Notes: generated from the letters alone by a model not told the origin. 61,692 nt of DNA, filler included, from Basidioascus undulatus (GCA_000826855.1; 8 parts of 8 records of this genome joined end to end with filler, not necessarily neighbours in it), one strand, 5' to 3'; counted from the whole stretch's first letter, positions 7,641 through 54,088 are shown. Made by a program: numbers and translations.

Positions 7641-7740
7641 NNNNNNNNNNNNNNNNNNNNNNNNNNNNNNNNNNNNNNNNNNNNTTAATTAATTAANNNN
7701 NNNNNNNNNNNNNNNNNNNNNNNNNNNNNNNNNNNNNNNN
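7641..7740. other. Artificial contig linker (N44-TTAATTAATTAA-N44)
   Basis: Identical 100-bp spacers with stops in all six frames also occur at 15376-15475, 23109-23208, 30836-30935, 38563-38662, 46283-46382 and 53989-54088. Confidence 0.99.
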
Positions 7741-11260: not shown

Positions 11261-13215
<1,955 letters not shown>

Positions 13216-14206
13216 GTGTGTCGCCCCCTTCCGCATCCGTATCCACATCCATCTCCATCTCCGCATCGCATCGCATACTCGCATCTCTCGTTCAACACCG
13301 AGGGCCTTCTGACTGTTATACCCCTTTTGGCTTTCCTTCGCTCGCTTCGCCCTTTCTCCTTGGTTTGTGATTGGCCGGCCGCTCCATCGTAGGCCGCGCT
13401 TTGTACGACGTAGACAAGAACTTGGCATGTCGTGACTTGCCATTATCTAAAATGAAGAAAAAGGCTTCAACCCCGCATACTCTTTCGCTTGCGTGTGCGC
13501 ATTTTGGTGTGGATTTGGCTCGATTTTGCGTCCATCGTGGTAGCTTGTTGGCCTTTGCGACAGGCACGGGGACACCTTCGCTCTCGACAAGACTCAACCT
13601 GGGGCTTGACGAGAAGGGAAGGCGAAGGGTAGTCTGATATGGTCGGGTTCTGACGTGCGCTTGCTTGATGCTGCGACTGCACGTCCCAATCATCGCGACT
13701 GGCGGTCGCGCAGCAAATGCCCCGAATGGGCTTTCAGAGCATCAAAGCTAACGTATCGGCATATAAACTGCTTCTTCAAGAATTCTGAAGATCCATTCAA
13801 AGTTCGAAGCCAGCTCTCTTCTTGATCCCGCCAATCCCGCTCATTTTCCTCGTCTTGGAAGCAACACACGCCGCATTGCCATTCATCCCGCAGATCTCTA
13901 GATCGCAATACCCGTTTCATGACACCCGAAATAAAGTTACATTTCGTCACGGATGAGCCTGAGATCAACCGAGATGAGTGTCAGCGAGCCTGTTCCGATA
14001 CGCACCCCGAGTGCGCATTCCATAAATCCTTGTAGGTCGTTTAATACGTTGAGTTAGTTTGAAAAGCAAAGCTAAGGTATCCACCCGGTACAACTTGACT
14101 GTCAGCGCTGGACCAAAAGTCTGGAAAAAACGCTTTCGGCGGTGGCAGCCCAGTCGAGGAGAAGGTCTCTGTATCTCTATAAGTCCTGTGGGAAGCACAG
14201 GTAACA

Positions 14207-15375: not shown

Positions 15376-15475
15376 NNNNNNNNNNNNNNNNNNNNNNNNN
15401 NNNNNNNNNNNNNNNNNNNTTAATTAATTAANNNNNNNNNNNNNNNNNNNNNNNNNNNNNNNNNNNNNNNNNNNN

Positions 15476-16679
15476 GTAGAACATGCTGAGCCCGACGCGG
15501 GTGTGCGCGTCCCCCGCCTCCGTCTCCACTAGCACGGTCGGCTTCTCCTTCCCGTCACTCTTCCCGGGGATCCGCCCCCGCCTCCTCACCCTCGCAAGCA
15601 ATTTCCAGATCCCCTTCTACCGCGACATCCTCCTCCTCTGCGGCGTGTGCTCCGTCAACCGCAGGAGCTGCGAGAGGATTTTGAGGAAAGGACCGGGAAA
15701 CGCTATTTGTATTGTCGTGGGAGGCGCGGCGGAGAGCCTGAATGCTCACCCCGGGACCAGCGATTTGGTTTTGAGGAAGAGGCTGGGATTTATTCGGATT
15801 GCTATTAGACAGGGGTGAGTTTGTTGTGGGAGAGGAAGGAGGGGGAGGCGCACGCTGACTTTTCTGGAATGTAGGGCCGACCTCGTCCCCGTCTTTTCGT
15901 TCGTGCGTCCCAGCGCTCTCCTCTCCTTCTCTTTGCCCTTCCTCCATACAGCTAACCTGCCAGCCTCGACGCGCCCATACTCGTGCAGGGCGAGAACGAC
16001 GTAGGCCCTCCTTTCCTTCCCCCCTGCCCTCCTCTCCTTCCGTCCCTCGCTCCCGATCTCTCTGGCTCATCATCCCTCGTACGCGCGAGCAGATCTACGA
16101 GCAGCTCTCCAACGAGCGCGGGACGTCCGTCTACGCGCTCCAGAAGCGCTTCCAGAAGATGTTTGGGTTCACGCTCCCCCTGTTTCACGGGCGGGGGATC
16201 TTCAACTGTCCGTCCCTGTCCCCACTCCTCCCTTCCCTCCTCGCTTCCTATCCCCCTCCCCCTCTCTCCCCATCCTTCCCTTCTCCCTTCTATCCCCACT
16301 TCTTCATTTCCTCTGTTCCGAAGCGAGAAGGAAAATGAAAAGGGAAAGGAAGCCAGTGCTGATTCGGGATGGGGGATGTGTGGGTGGACCAGACAACCTC
16401 GGCCTCATGCCATACCGCCACCCGATCGTCTCCGTCGTCGGCCGCCCGATCGCCGTCAAGCAGCACGACAACCCCAGCACGGAGATGCTCGAGGACGTGC
16501 AGAGGCGGTATATCGATGAGCTTATGCGGTGCGGTCCTTCCTCACCACCTCCCCTCTTCCCCACCTCTGATTTCTGCGGGGCCTGATACTTGGGGGACGG
16601 GGGGGACGGCAGCATTTGGGACAGGTACAAGGACGTCTACGCCGCGAACCGGACGAAGGAGCTCACGCTCGTCGACTGA
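15476..16679 (+). CDS. DGA1: Diacylglycerol O-acyltransferase 2 (DGAT2), 3' part
   Basis: FPSLFPGIRPRLLTLASNFQIPFYRD, IVVGGAAESL, RLGFIRIA, ADLVPVFSF/GEND (12-nt exon 15989-16000)/IYEQ, GFTLPLFHGRG, GLMPYRHPIVSVVGRPI and YIDEL; TGA at 16677-16679. Confidence 0.95.
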
Positions 16680-17310
16680 GCACCCCGCCCGACCGTCCCA
16701 CCCGTCGTCTCGACCCTCTCTATATTAGAACGTAGCTCCCTCCCTATCTCCCACACACGCACATACCACTCCTCGGCCTCCTCGTTCTTCACGACTACTT
16801 CTCATTCCCATTTATTTTTCGTTTCTGGCACGTAACCCTTGGTTTCGGGTATCCTTTTTCCTATTCTTTTTACTGTCTTTGGTCTATGGTTTGGTGTGGG
16901 GAAGGCGGGAGGGGATGATGTGTGGAGAGGAGTGCGGTGAGGGGGCCAGGAGGAGAGGGCGAGGGGATCAGCATGGACACTTCGTTTTTCGAGTTTTGAA
17001 TTGGTTGAGAAACCAGTGCGTTGTTGGTGTGGTTCGCAGAAAGAAGTGGGCTTCTTGCAGAGTGCGACTGCAAGGGGAAAGCGAGATGCATGCAGGGTCA
17101 AGTTGTGAGGGGATGCAAGGCGTCCAGGTCGTGGGCATCTCCTCACTCTCGACTCACAGGCAAAGATTCTGGTCTTGGCGGTTGGCCGTCCGTTATATGC
17201 GTGCTGGGTTTGCAAGAGGGGAGACAACGCATTGAACTCACCCAGCTCACCGCTTGACCCAGTGCTGCGCACGGCTTTGCCCTTTCATGTACTCGTAGTT
17301 TTTCGAGACC

Positions 17311-17344
17311 GACTCGGTGATGAATGTGACTCGGTGATGAATGT
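17311..17344. repeat. Perfect tandem duplication of the 17-mer GACTCGGTGATGAATGT
   Basis: Two exact adjacent copies, seen directly. Confidence 0.9.
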
Positions 17345-19379
17345 GATTCATCGCTATAGTGGTTGAAGATACTACTGCATAGCATCAGGATCTAGAATGT
17401 TTAGACGAATGGGCACGCTTCAGTTGTGCGGTGGAGAGCCGGCGTTGCAACCGCTGCAGCAATGGGAGCTCGCCCAAGGCTCGTCGAGATAGGCAGACTG
17501 GAAGAAGGCCACATATATTGAAATCCAATATTCTTTCATTCGTAAATTTTGAACTCCAGATACATGGTATAGATGCCTGCCAGTCCGTTGGCCTGGCACG
17601 CTGGCGTACGAGCTCCGACATCCACCTGTGTGACCACATCCGACCCAGCGGCTGTCGCCTATCGACATCAGCGTCGCAAAGTAATGAAACGGCCAAGCTT
17701 TAGCCCACTTCTCCATTAGCCCTCTTCTATATTCGCTGAGCTCTTCCAGGGCATTTGGGGGGCATTGCCTGTACTGACACTGAAGTGTTCGCGCTGAAGG
17801 TGAACCCGGCGATGCTCATGGTGACCCTTATGCTGCACCTTCTGGAAGCCAAACTACTTTCCTAGAGGATACGCATTGCTGCACAACTCAGGAACGCGTG
17901 CGCTGCTGTGCCCTTTACTTGCTACTGGGGGAGCATGTCGGACCACCGTCAAGCATGCATAATTACGAAATGCTCCAAAAAGATTTCATGTATCAAGAAG
18001 CCGTTTTTCCGCGATCAAGGGATCGTACATAGCCCGTTGCAACCTTCGCCTGCTGCCCCCATCAGACATCGAGGCTCAACGTCTTGCGATACTTCGAGTC
18101 ACTGTCGAGATCCCAAATGGAGCCGTCGTAAATGCGCCCGTAGGACTGCTCAATAGTATACTGAAGGACGACGAGCTTGACAAGGCTGGAAGCAGGAAGC
18201 TCAGCCAGAACGGTCTGCTTGAAAATGTCACTGGTAGCGCCATCCGCGCTGAGGAAGAAAATCAGTTTCTGCAGCGATAGTGCCTCTTGTCCCACACGCG
18301 TAACACCCTCGATGTAAAATAAAAATATGTCGTCCCAGGACCACTCAACACAGACCGTGAGATGCGAAAGGCAGCCGAGCTGAACAATGTTTCCAGTCAA
18401 CACCCGATTGCGGAGGCAGAACTCTCCGACAGAAAGGTGTGTGAGCTCGCACTTGATTGGCTGCAGCGAGCGAAGAAGAGCGGGCTATTCAGTGCATGCA
18501 ACTTCTTTAAGCTTGGGACGTTTCTCGACATGGGTGGACAACAAATCTATAATAAGACTGTCTTTGAGACAATTGGACATGGCGATGCGTTCTAGACTTA
18601 GTGCACGGGAGGTCAAGCGCGCGATGACGGTGGTGAGTGCCTCTAACGTTTGGCTGTCCGTCGCTGGGTACGCGAAAGGCAGGGAGATCTACCTTGCCAA
18701 GGAGCGCGGGCCTTCCCTCGGCGGTGTGGGCAAACGCCCGGAAGATCTGCATGTCAGGACCCCTGAAGATGCCAATCGAGAAGAAGTCGATCGAGGATTA
18801 GAGCGCTTCGGCTGCGCGGTGTCCTTGCAGCCGTGCGAGACGAGGCCAAGCGAGGCCAGCGTGGCTGAGTCCTGGCCGTACGCGAGCGGGTGAACCGGAG
18901 CAGCGACGGCGTCCACAACCGAGTCTGAGGGCGTCGACGTGGAGATAGGGGACGGACATGTTGATTGAGGTGGACGTTCGGTACGAGATCGTTTAGAGAA
19001 GGGCGAGAGGGATAGAGGCACGAGGGCCGGATAAGGTGGTGGGTGGTACATAGTCAAGCGCGGGCAAGTGTCTGTCGAAACGTTGGCCCTCGGAGCAAAG
19101 TTGAACGTCGAACTTCCCGCATCCGTCTCGCTCTTCGGTAGGGCAGAGTATCTTTCGTCGCCTGGGAACTGTGCTGAGACTTGAACGACCTGCCGAGTAA
19201 TAGTGTGTGATATTGGCCAAAGGAAGCAGTCGCCGTCCAGGTGAGGAACATGAGGCAGTAAGCTTCAAAAGCTTCCCCAACACAAAGACATGAGAGCCAT
19301 GAGACAAACCGGAAATTAAACGTCAACAGTATGTCAAGCGTCCCGAAACTGCGAACGAGCGTGTTCCAGCTGGCGAACG

Positions 19380-20566
19380 TCGGTCCGGGCGAATGACGAG
19401 GGGAGATGCGGTGGGAGAAGAGGGTGTCGAGCTCTTCAAAGGTGCGCTTTCGCGTCTCGGGCATGTTGAAGAAAGACAGACTGTATAGAAACTTCAGCTC
19501 AAGTCGCCAGTAGGAGCTCAGAATTAAAGGTAAGAGCGCACCACGTGAAAGAAGGGCCAGTCCGCCGAAAATGAACCCAACTTTGCCGCCGAGGTTGGCT
19601 TCGTCTGGGTTGAGGAGGTACGGTATGACAATATTCTGGGAAGCGTAGACACATAAAGATAATGCTTCAACAGAACGGCAGGAGGAGGAAAGTGTGGGGA
19701 CTGACGGATATCAGTCCGACCACGGTGTTGGTCATGTAGCCAAGGTGGATCGCCTTGGAGCGCAGACGAGAGTTAGGGACGCCAGCGAAGAAAGCGTACG
19801 CCCCGGGGCCGATAGTGGCGAAATAGAGAAAGTTGTATACGAGCGTGAAGGATGCCATGGCCATCCGCGCCTGCCCGCCAGGAATCACGCCCAGGATGCC
19901 GACCAGGAGAATGCAGACGGTGAGGACGACGAGGCCCCAGAGCCAGAGGGGTCGTCGGCCGAAGCGGTTGAGCATCCAGAACGACATGATACCCGATTCC
20001 GAGAGCGGAGACGCCGAGGCCGAGGTCGTAAGACCTTAATTGAGCGAAGCCGGCAAGCTGGAAGAAGCTTTTGGCCGGGAACAAGGCAGTGTCCGTGAAA
20101 CAGGCTGCGTTAACAGCCCCGAGCAGCGTACTAGGTGCTGAACCCTATGACGAAGGTGACGCCTTGAAGAGTAAGGATGCAATGAGTTAGAAGACGTCGC
20201 GCAGAGCAAGGCTTGACGCACCGCAGAGTTGCTGTATCAAGAAAGTCGAGCAGCCAATCAAGGTGCGGCTGGAGAGCCACCCAGCAAGATCAGTACGGAA
20301 ATGCCCAAAGCCATTACGGAACAAATTGCTCACTATCGGTCAACGCCCTTGAAGCAGTCCAGCACGCTGGCGCCCGTTCGCCTCCCTGCGCGTACGCTCG
20401 ATCGTCTCCGAGATCGCAGCAACCTTGCAATCCAACGCGTCCTCCGGGGTACCCAGACGCCTGAGCGACTTCTTGGCGGCTTCTGCCGGCCTTTGCGTAT
20501 GAGGTGCCAGGGGCTATCGGGCATGGAAGGGACTCCGCAGAGGAGGATTAAGGCGAAAAGCCACTG
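19380..20566 (-). pseudogene. C-terminal half of an MFS sugar porter (maltose/alpha-glucoside permease-like), frameshifted; 3' end approximate
   Basis: QWLFAL..MPDSPWHLIRKGR, LDCFKGVDRYRTLIG..QQLCG, FSTYFFQLAG, NRFGRRPLWLWG, IGPGAY..SRLRSK, PYLLNPDEANLGGKVGFIFGG and PETRKRTFEELDTLF. Frameshift near 19995, and a shifted segment at about 20370-20485. Confidence 0.85.
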
Positions 20567-20821
20567 GTGCATCGGGTAGTGAATCAGGTAGTCCGGAGTG
20601 CAGAGCTCGTCGACCTGTGTCAAGGGGCACTCTATGAGCTGGATATCTCCGGCGTTAGGGGTGAGTATGGAAATAAACGCACGATATCGGCGTTGCCCGT
20701 CCCCCAGTACTCCTGCAGACCCAGCAGATGGTAAGTCGATTGAACCGAGGTGTACTCTCAACAACATAGTTACCTCGAAGTACTTCCCGATAACCGCCTT
20801 GTTCTGCTCGGTCGAGGGCAT
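20567..20821 (-). pseudogene. N-terminal fragment of a SnoaL/NTF2-like (ester cyclase-type) gene, fused to the transporter fragment
   Basis: Spliced: MPSTEQNKAVIGKYFE/EYWGTGNADI/VDELCTPDYLIHYPMH, which matches the SnoaL-like N-terminal pattern; transporter sequence follows immediately. Confidence 0.75.
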
Positions 20822-20901
20822 TGTGAACGTAGCGTGGGATGGATGGGGTGCGCTGTTGTGTTGTGATGGTAGTAAGAGGCTAAATGACGCGCCGTCAGAT
20901 G

Positions 20902-20909
20902 CTTTTATA
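20902..20909 (-). promoter_or_regulatory. Putative TATA box of the SnoaL-like/transporter chimera
   Basis: TATAAAAG on the minus strand about 80 bp upstream of the ATG at 20821. Confidence 0.5.
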
Positions 20910-21993
20910 CGCTACGGATGGCGAGTGGGTGGAGTGCTCACTTTTAAGAACAAGCGCGTGCGCGGCCGGTCACTTTCGCAGCAATCGTTTCGAGAGCAAA
21001 TAATGCAGTAGACTGCGTCAGAAGAAGGTTCACTAACACCAAGGTGAACTCTGGAAACCTCTCAAGCTTTCGCATCGTGGGCATGAACTCGTCGACAACA
21101 TGCTCATGTTTCCACTGGCACTCCAGGTCTGCCAGAGAAGTGCATGAGGCTCGACCGTCTCCTTTCAAGCCGAGCCGGATACATAGGTGGTAGGATAATC
21201 TCACAATGACAAGCTATTCTAAGCCGGGTGCCATTTGGATCAGCTTGGTTTCTCTAATGGTGTCGAGTCCGCAGTGCCAGTCAACCTACTGGGTCATTAT
21301 GAAGGAACACCCAGCTCGGCAAGTCCGAGTCTTTTCTAAGAAAACTCTAAAGTATTGTATCTCAAAATCAGATCTTACCCTCACTGCCTCAAGTGGCCTG
21401 GGAATACACTGTATGCACTCGAAGGTCGGCACTTGCTAGCACTTACTTTGGGTGCTAACCGGCTGCATCGTCGTCCAAATCGTTTGAAAGCATAGACCAG
21501 ACACTAATTAAGATCACCTGAGACTAACGGAACAGTCGCTGAAAGCTCGCTCGCTGCTGTCGTCCAGACATGCAGCTCTACCGTCCGCTGCGCCGCTGCT
21601 GGCCGTAAAACCACAGCGAGAATGACTCGCCCAGTGTAAGCTTCTGATTCCCATGCCTAAATCCAGAGTGTACACTCTCTGCCTTCGTTGTCTGTCTGCA
21701 GTCCATGCTTTGCCGTAACGGTAGCGACGCTGCAGTGGGACGGAGCACTTCATGTAGCAACCTCCTAAATGGACACGAAGCAGCCACTGTGAAACTTTGT
21801 GATCCCAAGGCACATTATACCTCTGAAAACTGCCAAGAGAAGAACTGTTGGAGAAAGACCACTCATCCAGCTCTTTCTCGAACCGCACACCTTCGCAGCG
21901 TACAAGCTCAGCACCCGGCCCGTCCTATCCCTTCTCCCTCTCCTTCCCCTCCCCGTTCTACCTCCTCCTCCCTCTCCCCAACCTCAAACCAGC

Positions 21994-22716
21994 ATGTCCC
22001 TTCCCGACTGGGACCCGTCCTCCCTCCCCTTCCCGCACCCAACAACCGCCCCGCAGACCGTGACGGTCGCTGAGCTGTCCACGTTGCTCACGACCAAGAA
22101 AACGGGGGAGGACTACGTGGTTGTGGATGTGCGGAGGGAGGATTTGAAGGTGCGGTTTGGTCTTGAGATAGGCTTGTTGTGAGTTGGTTGGTTGACAGGA
22201 GAGGCGGGGTAGGGCGGGATGGTACCGACTGCGTGCGTCGTTTCTGCTGGGGAGGAGAGCCGGGGAGAGCTGACAAAGATGGCGATGGACGCGGACGGAA
22301 ACAGGATCAACCTCCCGGCGCAGTCGTTCTACCACACTTTGGATGGGGTCGTCCCCCTTCTGGCGCCCCGCATTCCCATCGTAATCTTGTCCGCCCCCTT
22401 TCCCTTTTCCCTCATCCCCCTTCCTAGCCTCTTCCCTCCTCCCCTCTTCCCCGATTCCCCTTCCGTCGTTCTTCCGCTTACATACTTCCTAGATTACATA
22501 CTTACTAATGATGGATCCGCCCGTACCAGCTACTGTTCCAAAGGCACCCCCGGCCCGACCGGGCGGTCGCACCTCTGCGCGTCCTGGTTCCGCCAGCGCG
22601 TGGAGTGCGAGGCGCGCGAGCCTGTGAAGGTGGGCGTGCTCGAGGGGGGGATTAAGGGCTGGGAGGCGGGCGTGGACAAGGGGGATGGGAGGCTGTGGAA
22701 GACTGTGGGCGGGTAA
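21994..22716 (+). CDS. Rhodanese-fold Cdc25-like phosphatase/arsenate reductase (Ych1/Acr2-like), 4 exons
   Basis: DYVVVDVRREDLK/GGMVPTA/INLPAQSFY..IVIF/YCSKGTPGPTGRSHLCASW..VGVLEGGIKGW. Confidence 0.85.
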
Positions 22717-23236
22717 TGAGACGAGTGGGGAGTAGGAGGGAGGAGGGATAAGAGAGCGATGTGCAATGTGCGATGAGTGAGCGCGACGAGTGAGCGATGT
22801 ATCGCATCGGCTGGAGGGTTAAGCGAAGCGAGGCGCTGCAATCGATGCACTCAGCCTAGACTGCGTGCTGTAGGCGGATCAGCACGGACCCGACGCAGGA
22901 TAGCTGAGCACGAAGAATAGGCGAGTACGAAAGATGAGTGAGCGCGCCCGAAAGCTCATCATCCCAGCCCAAGCTCCTGCATGCGCGCGTGAGGGAGTGC
23001 GGGGGCGATCCGTCATTCATCCACGTATTGCACCTCGCCCTCGCCTGCACCCTCGCCCTCGCCCTCCTCGCCAACAGCGAAGTGATCTACTCCTACCGCC
23101 TCCAGCGCNNNNNNNNNNNNNNNNNNNNNNNNNNNNNNNNNNNNNNNNNNNNTTAATTAATTAANNNNNNNNNNNNNNNNNNNNNNNNNNNNNNNNNNNN
23201 NNNNNNNNCCTCCCCTCCCCTCCACACCAACACCCA

Positions 23237-24196
23237 TCACGCCGTGTTGCGAAGCACTGCACCCGCCCCGTGCTGCCGTCAGCTTACGCTCGCTGGACTG
23301 GAGGGTGGGAGACGTACCCAGAATGACCGAGTCGCCCCTGCAGGACAGAAAAGAGCCGGGGAATGAGCATCATTCTGTAGAGGAAGAGGAGAGACGAAGA
23401 GGGGAAGGGGAAGATATGATGGGCGTACCGCAAGAACATCTTTGAGATGAACCGGTCCTTGTTCACCGGCTGCTTGTTCTTGCCCTTCGGCACTTCTGTC
23501 CACATCTGGGCCGCGGCAGAACAGCACGCGTGTCAGCTGCGGCGGAAAGCGGGGGATGGGAAGGGGATGAGAGGTAAAGGCACCTCCTTCACGTTCTCCA
23601 GCACCTGGGAAGAGGGAGAAGAGCGCTGGTCAGTGATCGTGTGATGGCTTGGTGGGTGGAGCTGCTACGCCTGCCCCCGAACGGCGCGTGCTGTAGGTGG
23701 AAGTCCACACAACTCCAAATGACATCTCCCTCCGGAACCTACTGGCGTTCCCAGCTATCCCTTGCCCCCGCTCGCCGCCCTCCCAAGCCTGGACGTCACC
23801 TGAGCCGGCTCCCGCCCTCCTCTCCTACGCCCGCGCGTCCTTCCATCCCTCGTCCTCCCTTGTAGCCTTCTACGCAGCATGTGCCCCGTTCCACGCGCAA
23901 TAGCCAAGACTGACCATGTTAGAATGGCGGTCGAACGCCTTTACGCGCGCGAGGAGCTTGCGGTTGTTGCGGAGGGAGATGAGGATCTGAGTGTTGTTCT
24001 TGACCGACTGCTGCAAGACCGAGAGCGGGCCCTGGCTGATCTCGAACTGCAGCCACGTCCCACCATTCCACCCGGCATCAGAATCAGGATCAGGGGCCCT
24101 GCGAAGGCGCGGAGGGGCGGGAAGGCGGACCTCCTCCAGCTGGCGGAGCTGCGCCTCGTCGAGCTCGGACTTGGGCGTATTTTGGTACTGAGACAT
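23237..24196 (-). CDS. SMD2: Small nuclear ribonucleoprotein Sm D2, 6 exons
   Basis: [103 protein letters not shown]. Confidence 0.97.
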
Positions 24197-26513
24197 CGTC
24201 GGACGGTCGGTGGGCGCGCCGAGGGAGTTGTGTGTGCGGTGGGGGAAGCGGAGAGCGAGCAGGCGAACGGGCAAGATGGAGGACTGCACGCGGCGGAGAG
24301 TGAGCGCCTTCCATGAGCGCGTTCAAAAGTTAGGGTTACGCGGCTTGTCCTGGCTGTGTACAGCACGAAGCTGCTTAAATGCAGATTATTCCTTGCTACG
24401 GGGGTTTCCTTGTCTGAAAGTGCTGGAAAATAGAGGCAGTCTCTCATAGAGTGATATGGGGATGAATGCAAGTGCAAGCGTGCTGACCGTCGGCAGTCTG
24501 GGATGCTGGGATGCAGGCACTCAGCGCATGCAGCCTGAGCACTCGGCGTGCACACGCGGAGAATATAATGCATGCTATGCGCGGAAAATGCTTTATTTCG
24601 TAAATGGTTTGAAGTTCCCTTCAGATCACCCATTACTGGGCTGCGGTCGGCGTGGAAGCCAAATATACTGCCGACGCACGCGAGTACCGACGCTGGACCC
24701 GATGTTCTCCCCGCCAGACATGGCGCGGACGACTTTGCCTAGCGGGCCTTCATAACATACCTTCTTAATTCCCCGATCCCATCAATGTTAACCGACACCG
24801 GTGATCAGTTGCGATCTGAAAAGATGTTAGAACGAACCAGTTCAGCTGCGTCCTGGCTCACGAGTCGTCGGTCTTTGCAGCACCAAAGTGAATGCATGAG
24901 CTTGTCTAGGTGAACACGCTCACCAAAACTATTACATTCTTTCACCCCTCTATCTGGTTGTCCCCGTCTATAGATACTCTCAGCCTGGCGACGGGCAAGT
25001 GGCAGACACTGCTCCTGGTCGCAAATCCCGTAAGCCATGTTCCTTTCGACTCCTGGTGCGAGCGCCTTCCAAGTTGAGCTTATAAGGCTTTTCTTGAGTG
25101 TTAAATGAGCTTCCGAATTCGTCTGGGCATATGTTTGAGTTAATACTGAAGAAGGGGAATGCCAGAACGGACGGACAAAGTGCAACTTGCAGCACAGTGC
25201 ACAAATGCAGGCCCCGGCCCGGTTCAGTTAGTTTGTGCTCCGAGCAAATGAAAAAACCTTCAATAACCCAGTCCATCGTTTCCCCAACCGCGGGAGTGCT
25301 TGGGAGGTTGTGAAAAAAACATGTCAACACCACAATCGAACGCGAACGACGAAGTGGATGATCGCATCCCACCCGCAGTGCAGCCTAACAATGCCCAACG
25401 ACCGCCCGTTGGCTCTTGCAGCAACCGCCCTCAGACAAGATGTTTAAATGGTGCAACTTGGGCCCTAGCCAGATTCAGCAGCATCGATTCATCCACTCGT
25501 GGTTGACTACATGGCGTCACGAACTGACAGCGCACTCCGCCCAGCGGGGCGTTCGCAACTGGCATCGGGTCGCTTGTCGCAGATTCTTGGTAGACGCTGT
25601 CCAGGATGAGCGTGGGCCGTCATGAGCGTCCGCTTCGCCTAGTGGGCAGTCCGAGCTGCCATGCCCGGAGTCACTGCGCGAACAGCACGTCAGTGCCCGA
25701 CCCGCTCATCCCGCCATGGCCATCAACACAGCTACAAGTAGACTCACCAGGTACTCCGATGCGCTACGCCCCTCCCGATTTTCGGCGCTTCCAGAAGGAA
25801 TGATAGCCGTCCTCCGTCGGCACCCCGACCAAGGCCGCGCCTGGCGGCAGCATGGCCTTGAGATCGCGATGGCCAGCCGCAATGAGAGCCTTAATCTTAT
25901 CCTGAGGATCATAACGACTCTGTGAGCGGCCTTTACAGGTTAGATGGACGGGCAGATACGCACGATGTCGGTCTCGAAGCGATGGCGCTCGATGTCCGAT
26001 CTCAACCACGCGACGGTCTCGGTTCGTGCATCAGAGTGGGGGATGTCTGCGTTAGGCCAGAATCAGCCCAAGCCTGAGATACTACAGCATCGATGGAATA
26101 GAGCACCCACTCCTCGTCGACCTGAGGGCTTTCCGGTAGAGAGCGATGACGCGCGACTTCTGGATGAACTGTGGACGCGCCTTGTTCAGCTCGCGAGGAC
26201 ATCCCAGCCATTCTGCGTGCATACGTACATGTTCCAGGGAGAATCCGCCCGCATCCAGCTTGCGGCGTGCTGTCACAAACGACCGGGCCGGCAGGAACAT
26301 CGTACGGGGTGAAGCGAGACTAGAAGCAGCGGACAAGTCGGAGCGGCGTCAAAAGATCGCCCACGCGTCCGGAGCTTCCGGTCCGGACGGCTTCCGCATA
26401 AGACGTTCGCTGTCCTCCCTCTGCTTCCTCCCTCTCTATTCTCCGCGCTCTCAACACAACAGATCTGTTTCTTTCTCTGACCTGCACCTATTAACTTCCG
26501 CAAACAATAAACA

Positions 26514-30835: not shown

Positions 30836-31848
30836 NNNNNNNNNNNNNNNNNNNNNNNNNNNNNNNNNNNNNNNNNNNNTTAATTAATTAANNNNNNNNN
30901 NNNNNNNNNNNNNNNNNNNNNNNNNNNNNNNNNNNGTAGCGATAGACGACGGGCTGAGGCGCTTGTACTCCTCGCGCTCTAGGAGGGAGATCAAGGCGGG
31001 ATCCATACTTCGAGTTGGGTATTAAGGGCGGCTAGGTATATAAAATTGAGAGACGGAAGAGATGGAGGGATGGAGGGATGGAGAGAGGAACGAAGGAGGG
31101 GAGGGCAGAGAGATGGGAAGGGAGGCTGAGCCGTCTCTGTTATGAGCACGCCTCCTTGTAAGTAGCTCAGAAAAAGGGAAGGCTTGAACGATTCTATGAT
31201 ACTCTGCGCCGCCCCCCCATGTGACATCAGTCCGGAAAGAGACACAGATAAACATGGGACGGTTGGACGTTGGAATGGGGAGAGGGGTGTTTACTGAATG
31301 CCAGCGACAGATGTTCCTTGAAAGGCTGTTCTGCTTTTGGTCGGGACCGCGCGGGGTCCCTCAACCACGGCTGTACGCGGCCTGCAGCTTGTTATTTGGA
31401 GAGGATTACATGGGAAGATTCAGAGAAAAACATGCTCTTGTATTGCGCGATAGCGCGTGGGATGCGCTCTCAGCTGGGATGCGGCAGGCAGCCTTCGGAG
31501 AAATGGCATGGCATCGCGAGTCCATTCAGCCGTCCATGTCCGGTCACTGTCAAAGAAATCAAAGAAAATCACTCGCCTCCAGTCTTCTAGTTATATTCTT
31601 GGAGATTCTCAACAAAGATTCAGCAATTCGCTTTTCCGCAAGGAGAGTGCAGCCTGGGCGTTGTGCGGCGAAACTTAACAACAGACAGAACCCGGCCAAA
31701 GTTCCCATTCCGTCCCACTCGACTATTTCTTCCTTTTGAACGATTCCTTCTAAAATAGGGAGATGTGCCACAGCTGACAGACACATTGTCCCGATAAATC
31801 AATGAAGATGCGTGCGAGCCCGCACGACAAACGCAGCGACCTTAACGC

Positions 31849-37949: not shown

Positions 37950-38662
37950 TGCGTTGTATCGATCTATACCGTTTGCGAGACATAGCGTGGAGTGGCTCTT
38001 CACAGAGCTGTGCATTGCTGGCTCAACTGCGATCATCGCGCTGTGCGTCCAACGACTCCATCGGGTTTGATGGATGTGGGATGTTCTCGGAAAGGCACAA
38101 GGGGTAAGTTTGCTGACAGGCTCGGTCGGCAGTGAATGTCGTTCACGCAAGGGCAGCAACCGTGGTGTATGTTTTGAAAACCTTCACTCGATATAGGCGC
38201 CGCTTGCGCTCATAATTGACCAAAACATTATATGAAGGACGGGTGAACGGAGAACGGCAGCCGCAGTCAAGGGAAATTATCTCAGAAGACCGTGAGCGCT
38301 TCGAACATGATCGTGACAAAAAGAATAGGGGGTAGGGATCGAGGCAGTGGAGATGTCGGGGGGTGGGTATATCGCAAAGACGTAAATAGCCGGGGGGTAG
38401 GTATATTTGGAGAGCTAAATAGAATCTGTAAAGGGAAGATAGGGGGTGAAGTGATGTACGTATTGCGAAGCACGAAACGTAGTCGTTGACTCTTCGGCGA
38501 CCATCCGGTGCATCGGGACATTATCTACTTCGGATCGATCTTGAGGAAGTCGATCGCCTGGANNNNNNNNNNNNNNNNNNNNNNNNNNNNNNNNNNNNNN
38601 NNNNNNTTAATTAATTAANNNNNNNNNNNNNNNNNNNNNNNNNNNNNNNNNNNNNNNNNNNN

Positions 38663-45880: not shown

Positions 45881-46382
45881 GGTGATGGGCTGCCTTGCAG
45901 CTGGAGCGGGGACCAACAGCGTTCCACAGCTCCAGGTGCTGTGCACGTCCTGATCCGGCTCAGAAAACAGCTCTAGGTACGCTTTTCTCCAGCGCAGCAC
46001 TTCCATGTTGGCGCTGATGACGTTGAGCGCCATGTTCACTTCATCTCCCTGGCCCGCTCAATCCCATTAAGCAGTACGCCCTCTACACTTCATCCGCTGC
46101 TCCCTGGACTGCGGCTGAACTTGCCGTCCACCTTCCTCAGCACCAATCCAATGACTGGTGCGTCCGGAAGATATTAATTCGGGTCTTGAGGACGAGTCGA
46201 TGGAGACAGGTAGTGGGAGTGAGGGGGACAGGACGAAACTGGACGGGGAGGGAGGGATCTAGGAAATCACGGACTCTGGGAANNNNNNNNNNNNNNNNNN
46301 NNNNNNNNNNNNNNNNNNNNNNNNNNTTAATTAATTAANNNNNNNNNNNNNNNNNNNNNNNNNNNNNNNNNNNNNNNNNNNN

Positions 46383-53988: not shown

Positions 53989-54088
53989 NNNNNNNNNNNN
54001 NNNNNNNNNNNNNNNNNNNNNNNNNNNNNNNNTTAATTAATTAANNNNNNNNNNNNNNNNNNNNNNNNNNNNNNNNNNNNNNNNNNNN

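Follow-up and report, generated by a model that had tools for sequence, protein, structure and literature searches.

When the opening exons of one gene run, inside a single exon, straight into the later part of an unrelated one, is the result a gene in the making or the remains of two dead genes, and by what event were the parts joined? The question is posed by the minus strand of positions 20909 to 19334 in a 61,692-nucleotide stretch of DNA from Basidioascus undulatus (the window, by which we mean that whole stretch, filler included). A preliminary description held that a rearrangement had fused the 5′ part of a SnoaL-like gene to the 3′ part of an MFS sugar porter, and this stands, on the evidence of profile matches to both parts and of contigs that span the point of fusion. 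All features of the chimera given below lie on the minus strand.

The 5′ end of the locus carries the TATA box, ATG and two intact introns that had been described. The TATA-like box, TATAAAAG (20909-20902), was read directly and lies 88 nt 5′ of the ATG at 20821, which opens a first SnoaL-like exon of 16 codons (20821-20774). Intron 1 (20713..20773, 61 nt, GTAACT..CTGCAG) is followed by a second exon of 10 codons (20712-20683), by intron 2 (20615..20682, 68 nt, GTGCGT..ACACAG) and by the SnoaL-like portion of exon 3 (20567..20614), whose 16 codons end in DYLIHYPMH; both introns are GT..AG, and the three exon pieces splice to an N-terminus of 42 residues. Scored against a purpose-built profile of 28 PF07366 matches from genomes of actinobacteria (stretches were translated from 29 loci, one of them too short for use, and a further locus from an unpublished genome was omitted), these 42 residues reach 21.3 bits (E 1.3e-8), with residues 6-41 on profile positions 1-36, and so belong where the preliminary description had placed them. 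In the shuffle control the best score was 3.5 bits, and 0 of 2000 were higher. The third-position GC content (GC3) of the 42 codons is 0.90, which we liken to the 0.76-0.81 of real exons of the window. Judged from its sequence, the SnoaL-like N-terminus is real and beyond chance. Searches with the unspliced 85-aa reading gave no match in a Pfam scan, among PDB sequences and the Atlas, or in a word-based protein search, because exons of 10-16 codons are too short when left unspliced.

The chimera shares with SnoaL/NTF2-like proteins (PF07366) the N-terminal helix region, in the pattern ..NKA...FEE.W..GN.D.VDEL..PDY..H.P. Unlike those proteins it lacks the complete alpha+beta barrel, since only positions 1-36 of about 126, or ~29% of the domain, are present. 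The SnoaL pocket lies in the beta-sheet part, which is gone from the chimera, and the catalytic residues would likewise fall in the missing part. A six-frame scan of the window, 2249 segments in all, did not find the rest of the SnoaL gene (the best segment scored 5.9 bits, E 1.6); this blank would count as moderate evidence of loss, because the profile is bacterial and short exons score low.

The fusion lies at 20567/20566, within exon 3, which reads VDELCTPDYLIHYPMH up to the junction and QWLFALILLCGVPSMPDSPWHLIRKGR from it. As had been claimed, the SnoaL-like sequence meets the sugar porter directly and with no splice signal at that point. Homology to the SnoaL profile extends to residue 41 (20569-20571), and transporter homology starts with the Q at 20566. 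In tblastn comparisons 13 of 16 full-length homologues align there, all 13 with a conserved Q on 20566 and 12 of the 13 with QW, and P0002 shows the same distance from there to the P[ED]SPW motif. The weak Pfam Sugar_tr match of the junction ORF likewise begins exactly at this Q (positions 177-205).

We then compared the locus with contigs from X1 and X2, public DNA runs from two different studies, in which the sampled words of the stretch are present at 0.91 and 0.84, respectively. Each run has a single contig, of 5404 nt and depth 28 in X1 and of 2619 nt and depth 21.8 in X2, that leads from 20454 across the junction to past 22000 and shows neither a difference nor a gap. In each contig 113 letters lie on the transporter side, and the SnoaL side stays at single-copy depth along the 5.4-kb contig. 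X1 and X2 differ from one another at several sites, for example 19297, 19309, 19462 and 19522, which shows that the two runs are not identical sequence. One of them may be the source of the window, and hence at least one, perhaps not both, is independent of it. A junction recovered without a difference in contigs of two studies is not a misassembly, the explanation against which the preliminary description had asked that it be checked.

Six exon portions of a transporter follow the junction. The transporter portion of exon 3 (20334..20566) covers TM6, the PDSPW motif and the start of the central loop, and is succeeded by an intron (20269..20333, 65 nt, GTGAGC..CTCCAG), an exon matching profile positions 302-321 (20222..20268), an intron (20163..20221, 59 nt, GTGCGT..TTCAAG), a short exon reading GVTFVIGFST (20132..20162) and an intron (20068..20131, 64 nt, GTACGC..CAAAAG). 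A large exon (19706..20067) then matches profile positions 325-453, and beyond it lie an intron of 70 nt (19636..19705, GTCAGT..TCCCAG), an exon at profile positions 449-480 (19545..19635), an intron of 64 nt (19481..19544, GTGGTG..ATACAG) and the last exon (19334..19480; profile 484-522). All seven introns of the chimera, five in the transporter part and two in the SnoaL part, are GT..AG and 59-70 nt long.

The profile used for this part was built from 16 full-length homologues, and it finds the fragment in colinear pieces from positions 222-224 to 511-522 of 536 along 20572-19393, scoring 99.8 + 151.5 bits as the sequence is read. An open stretch of 122 aa (19667-20035) matches Pfam Sugar_tr with 49.8 bits (E 3.2e-13; cut-off 22.3) at positions 305-401 of 452, and the transporter match as a whole starts at position 177 of that family. 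Searched with HMMER against 1.84 billion representatives, the 122-aa exon gives 473 matches at E <=1e-3, the best of them just 38-45% identical, and no close relative was found; the best full-length relatives fall in clusters named maltose permease or alpha-glucoside:H+ symporter-like. The same exon had no match in a word-based search of longer proteins or in a metagenome scan. The word-search collection seems to be without this genome's own proteins, so that its blanks are uninformative on annotation.

The chimera resembles MFS sugar porters (PF00083) in its colinear course, which we take to run from TM6 to the C-terminus, with its start a little ahead of the PESPW-type motif, and it keeps both the QW..P[ED]SPW..RKGR stretch and the ..PET..EELD.LF tail. 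It differs from them in starting only after Pfam position 176 of 452 (221 of 536 in our profile) and in being broken five times where a member of the family keeps an open frame. With its first ~220 residues missing, the fragment does not make up the 12-TM architecture of two six-helix halves, and tblastn with the 16 full-length homologues found no transporter N-terminal half within 18000-22500. Measured by its homology, the fragment amounts to about 58-61%, at the 3′ end, of an MFS sugar porter gene of the maltose-permease-like kind. The earlier term half-transporter is therefore right in that the transporter is partial, and inexact in that more than half of it, from TM6 onward, is retained.

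How far can this locus be read? Two compensating frameshifts had been noted in exon 3, and both were located. Near 20485 (20485/6) the window is one base short compared with another copy of the sequence, and at 20373 it carries one extra G compared with the X1 contig. The stretch AEAAKKSLRRL..ISETIE (20513-20340) lies in a different frame, the original frame resuming at ASVLDCFKGVDR; the two breaks cancel each other after 37 codons. The reading frame had also been said to stay open through three more introns until a frameshift near 19995, and here too the description holds, the break falling at ~19992-19993 in the large exon, where the alignment passes over profile position 353 and 2 nt are common to both frames. 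This break is in every contig. From the ATG the spliced ORF amounts to 243 aa, out of frame past ~19993 and ending at a stop at 19775-19773; if the X1 state at 20373 alone is substituted, the chimeric ORF is 122 aa.

Beyond what had been described, the 3′ part holds two further introns (19705-19636 and 19544-19481) and two further frame breaks, both in the last exon. At 19476/7 the window is one base short compared with the X2 contig, so that after the 64-nt intron the last exon is out of frame, and at 19391/2 it is one base short compared with both runs. The native stop TGA (19336-19334) can be reached only with the bases absent at these two places. With the indel states of the contigs inserted, positions 224-352 of the profile score 139.0 bits instead of 99.8, and positions 355-522, to the natural stop, 213.0 bits instead of 151.5, and the break at ~19993 persists even then. 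At 20373 X1 is without the G (depth 70 of 70), and at 19391 both runs have the additional base at full depth. The window states at these two positions may be private to the window's strain, lost in the popping of contig bubbles, or errors of assembly. Contigs drop minor paths, and the full-depth differences at 20373, 20392, 20415 and 19391 may accordingly be letters of the other copy.

That other copy is a new observation: the block 18622..20548 has at least one further copy, ~97% alike, in both runs. Contigs occur in two variants over 18703-18899 (11 differences and 6 gap letters in 199), 18901-19089, 19689-19858 (6 differences in 170) and 20454-20548, and between these stretches there are single contigs at about twofold depth (19231-20483). 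Depth within the block is ~70 against 28 in X1, and 28-39 against 21.8 in X2; the X1 depths of about 28-34 against about 50 misfit a clean 1:1 picture of two copies. Contigs have loose ends at 18622 and 20548, and the second copy diverges from the window to the right of 20548 and probably also to the left of 18622. Several of the window's breaks are absent from it: the base missing at 20485 is present in it and restores ..IRKGRAEAAKK... The 10 codons (CCRQFLNHLE) that precede 20548 in this copy form an open frame and are unlike the transporter consensus in spacing and in character and hydrophobicity. An intron in the second copy is an unlikely explanation of the divergence at 20548, as it would need a GAG acceptor, and all seven introns here end in CAG or AAG.

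The second copy does not lie in the window, where blastn of 18000-21500 and tblastn with four translated pieces returned self-matches only, and its 30-letter loose end had 0 matches in the window at <=3 mismatches and none in a metagenome scan. The window copy retains 18 nt (QWLFAL) more of the transporter, which suggests that it could not derive from the second copy in its present form, and the presence of the break at ~19993 in every contig suggests that this break is older than the copying. A third run, X3, from the sample of X1 (15.7 Mb of contigs; guessed to be DNA), contains a 233-nt contig at 18790-19015 in the form of the second copy, at depth 4.2, and otherwise just two 18-19-nt scraps of the locus. 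If X3 were an RNA library, the 3′ flank of the second copy would be transcribed.

Ordinary housekeeping genes surround the chimera, and nothing around the SnoaL-like start points to a secondary-metabolite cluster. Between 11.9 and 28.1 kb, 9 of 121 ORFs carry a Pfam family; besides the transporter exon, the genes recognised, all split by introns, are an adenosylhomocysteinase (11915-13309, plus strand), a DAGAT acyltransferase (15480-16583, plus strand) and an LSM-domain protein (23873-24322, minus strand). The adenosylhomocysteinase exon at 12027-13169 is 85-89% identical to those of many Agaricomycetes and Tremellomycetes, with 89% for the best match and no identical protein in the word-search collection. 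Among the ORFs that flank the chimera directly (16.6-19.3 kb and 20.9-23.6 kb) no Pfam match was found at E <=5, save one weak match at chance level, and open frames with no Pfam family occupy both 16600-18620 (~2 kb on the 3′ side) and 20950-21900 (~1 kb upstream). Two plus-strand ORFs, 21793-22179 and 22213-22713 (GC3 0.67 and 0.76), look like a divergent putative gene that shares its upstream region with the SnoaL start. At 18840-18893 and 21933-21950, both runs and X3 show excess depth and loose ends; simple or small dispersed repeats, with no relation to the chimera, are the probable cause. Seven paired runs of 44 N lie ~7.7 kb apart (7641-7740, 15376-15475, 23109-23208, 30836-30935, 38563-38662, 46283-46382 and 53989-54088), one pair 2.2 kb upstream of the start of the chimera, and their regular spacing suggests marks of masking or scaffolding, not biology.

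With both genes cut, the frame repeatedly broken, and neither the remainder of the SnoaL gene nor the N-terminal half of the transporter nearby, the locus is very likely the relic of a dead chimeric gene and not a new gene. Of the two fates offered earlier, dead or nascent, the first agrees with the five frame breaks and with a product of 243 or 122 aa, and is favoured over the second. The SnoaL promoter would drive, at best, that 243-aa (or 122-aa) product with a nonsense end.

As to how the relic arose, we favour an in-situ deletion between neighbours on the same strand, followed by decay and copying, and would give this tentative account a little less than an even chance. The SnoaL gene and the transporter gene would originally have stood head to tail on one strand, and a single non-homologous deletion would have taken out two thirds of the SnoaL gene, at its 3′ end, along with the initial ~220 codons of the transporter, inactivating both genes. 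The remnant would then have gained small indels, the one at ~19993 earliest, and a 1.9-kb piece (about 18622-20548) would have been copied to at least one other site, after which the copies would have decayed separately; this is the order of events as we infer it. Deletion is favoured because the window copy is the longer in the transporter by 18 nt and because the break at ~19993 is common to the copies. Under this route it is a coincidence that the border of the second copy, at 20548, lies just 18 nt from the junction, and the existence of a further, near-identical partial copy of the transporter means that a plain deletion between neighbours is not the sole possible route.

The transporter block exists in at least two copies and both of its flanks are at single-copy depth, as would be expected if a partial copy of an already broken transporter, with ~700 nt of 3′ flank, had been put into the SnoaL gene. 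Such an insertion, by segmental duplication or double-strand-break repair and with the 3′ part of the SnoaL gene lost in the same event, is the main alternative, which we regard as less likely. The break at ~19993, common to all contigs, would fit a template that was broken before it was copied. However, the second copy matches only to 20548, 18 nt short of 20566, and is not the donor as it stands, so that one would have to invoke a third copy or a later change; moreover, an insertion and a deletion are required, against one deletion and one copying. The outcome would still be a dead relic, and by neither the deletion nor the insertion route would a working transporter or cyclase be made.

It is also conceivable, though we consider it unlikely, that the second form is an allele, namely a second haplotype in a strain that is dikaryotic or diploid, different in structure and perhaps with an intact transporter. 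The organism is a basidiomycete, to judge from the identity of its adenosylhomocysteinase exon; basidiomycetes are often sequenced as dikaryons, and the X2 variants have nearly equal depths of 17-23 each. Against this, hemizygosity of both flanks would be required, the right flank forms a single variant-free contig at the lower depth (5.4 kb in X1, 2.6 kb in X2), and contigs of up to 102 kb, with about 34-35 Mb per run in X1 and X2, suggest little heterozygosity. The open, non-consensus 10 codons before 20548 further indicate that the second copy is not intact there, barring an intron with a GAG acceptor.

A far more remote reading is that of a young functional chimera, a truncated membrane protein under the SnoaL promoter that has been kept by selection. 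No damage is seen in the promoter-like region, the ATG or any splice site, the junction is common to two non-identical genomes, and the pair of breaks at 20485 and 20373, with the frame regained 37 codons later, might be the mark of selection to keep the frame open. A young gene of this kind, transcribed from the SnoaL promoter, would have to make a useful SnoaL-headed TM6-TM8 protein, for example a dominant modifier of related permeases, which strikes us as very improbable; that the frameshift pair was fixed for such a short protein, the later breaks merely trimming its tail, is equally hard to credit. The frame is lost at ~19993 in every contig, leaving 243 aa with an out-of-frame end, or 122 aa with the X1 state at 20373, and just 36 of about 126 SnoaL positions are present, joined to a transporter that presumably lacks helices 1-5. 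No such fusion is seen among relatives either: with the SnoaL profile, 0 of 183 transporter-related proteins fetched matched at E <0.1 (best E 0.42). Scarcely credible at all are errors of assembly in the window as the source of the junction or the frame breaks, for which the single-base states at 19391 and 20373 that the contigs lack might speak, since the junction and the linked break at 20485 recur letter for letter in contigs of two studies and the break at ~19993 is in all contigs.

Chimeric genes and pseudogenes that arise by illegitimate recombination or partial duplication are well known. The dead relic proposed here is like them in that two unrelated parents are fused in frame within a single exon, the promoter and the 5′ exons being borrowed, and in that one portion comes from a partial duplicate. 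It is unlike known chimeric genes in that its frame is repeatedly broken and that it is known from DNA alone; of the features that define a fusion gene, two unrelated parents in one frame are present, and an acquired part held open by selection is not. Examples are an X-linked chimeric gene reported from Drosophila (PMC1463047) and partial duplicates in the Triticeae, which are reported to be mostly classed as pseudogenes (PMC6092874). With processed (retro-) pseudogenes the locus shares a non-functional extra copy of part of a gene. All seven GT..AG introns are retained, and an origin by way of spliced mRNA is thereby rejected.

As the relic of a chimera, the locus carries small weight for biology at large. 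It is a clean and datable case of a non-homologous fusion of unrelated fungal genes, splice-competent yet decaying, and it also shows a 1.9-kb gene fragment copied within a genome. Since its start and splice sites are intact and long stretches of it are open, gene callers could be misled into reporting a false 'SnoaL-domain MFS transporter'. The indels that vary between copies and strains could serve as markers by which the events at this locus are put in order.
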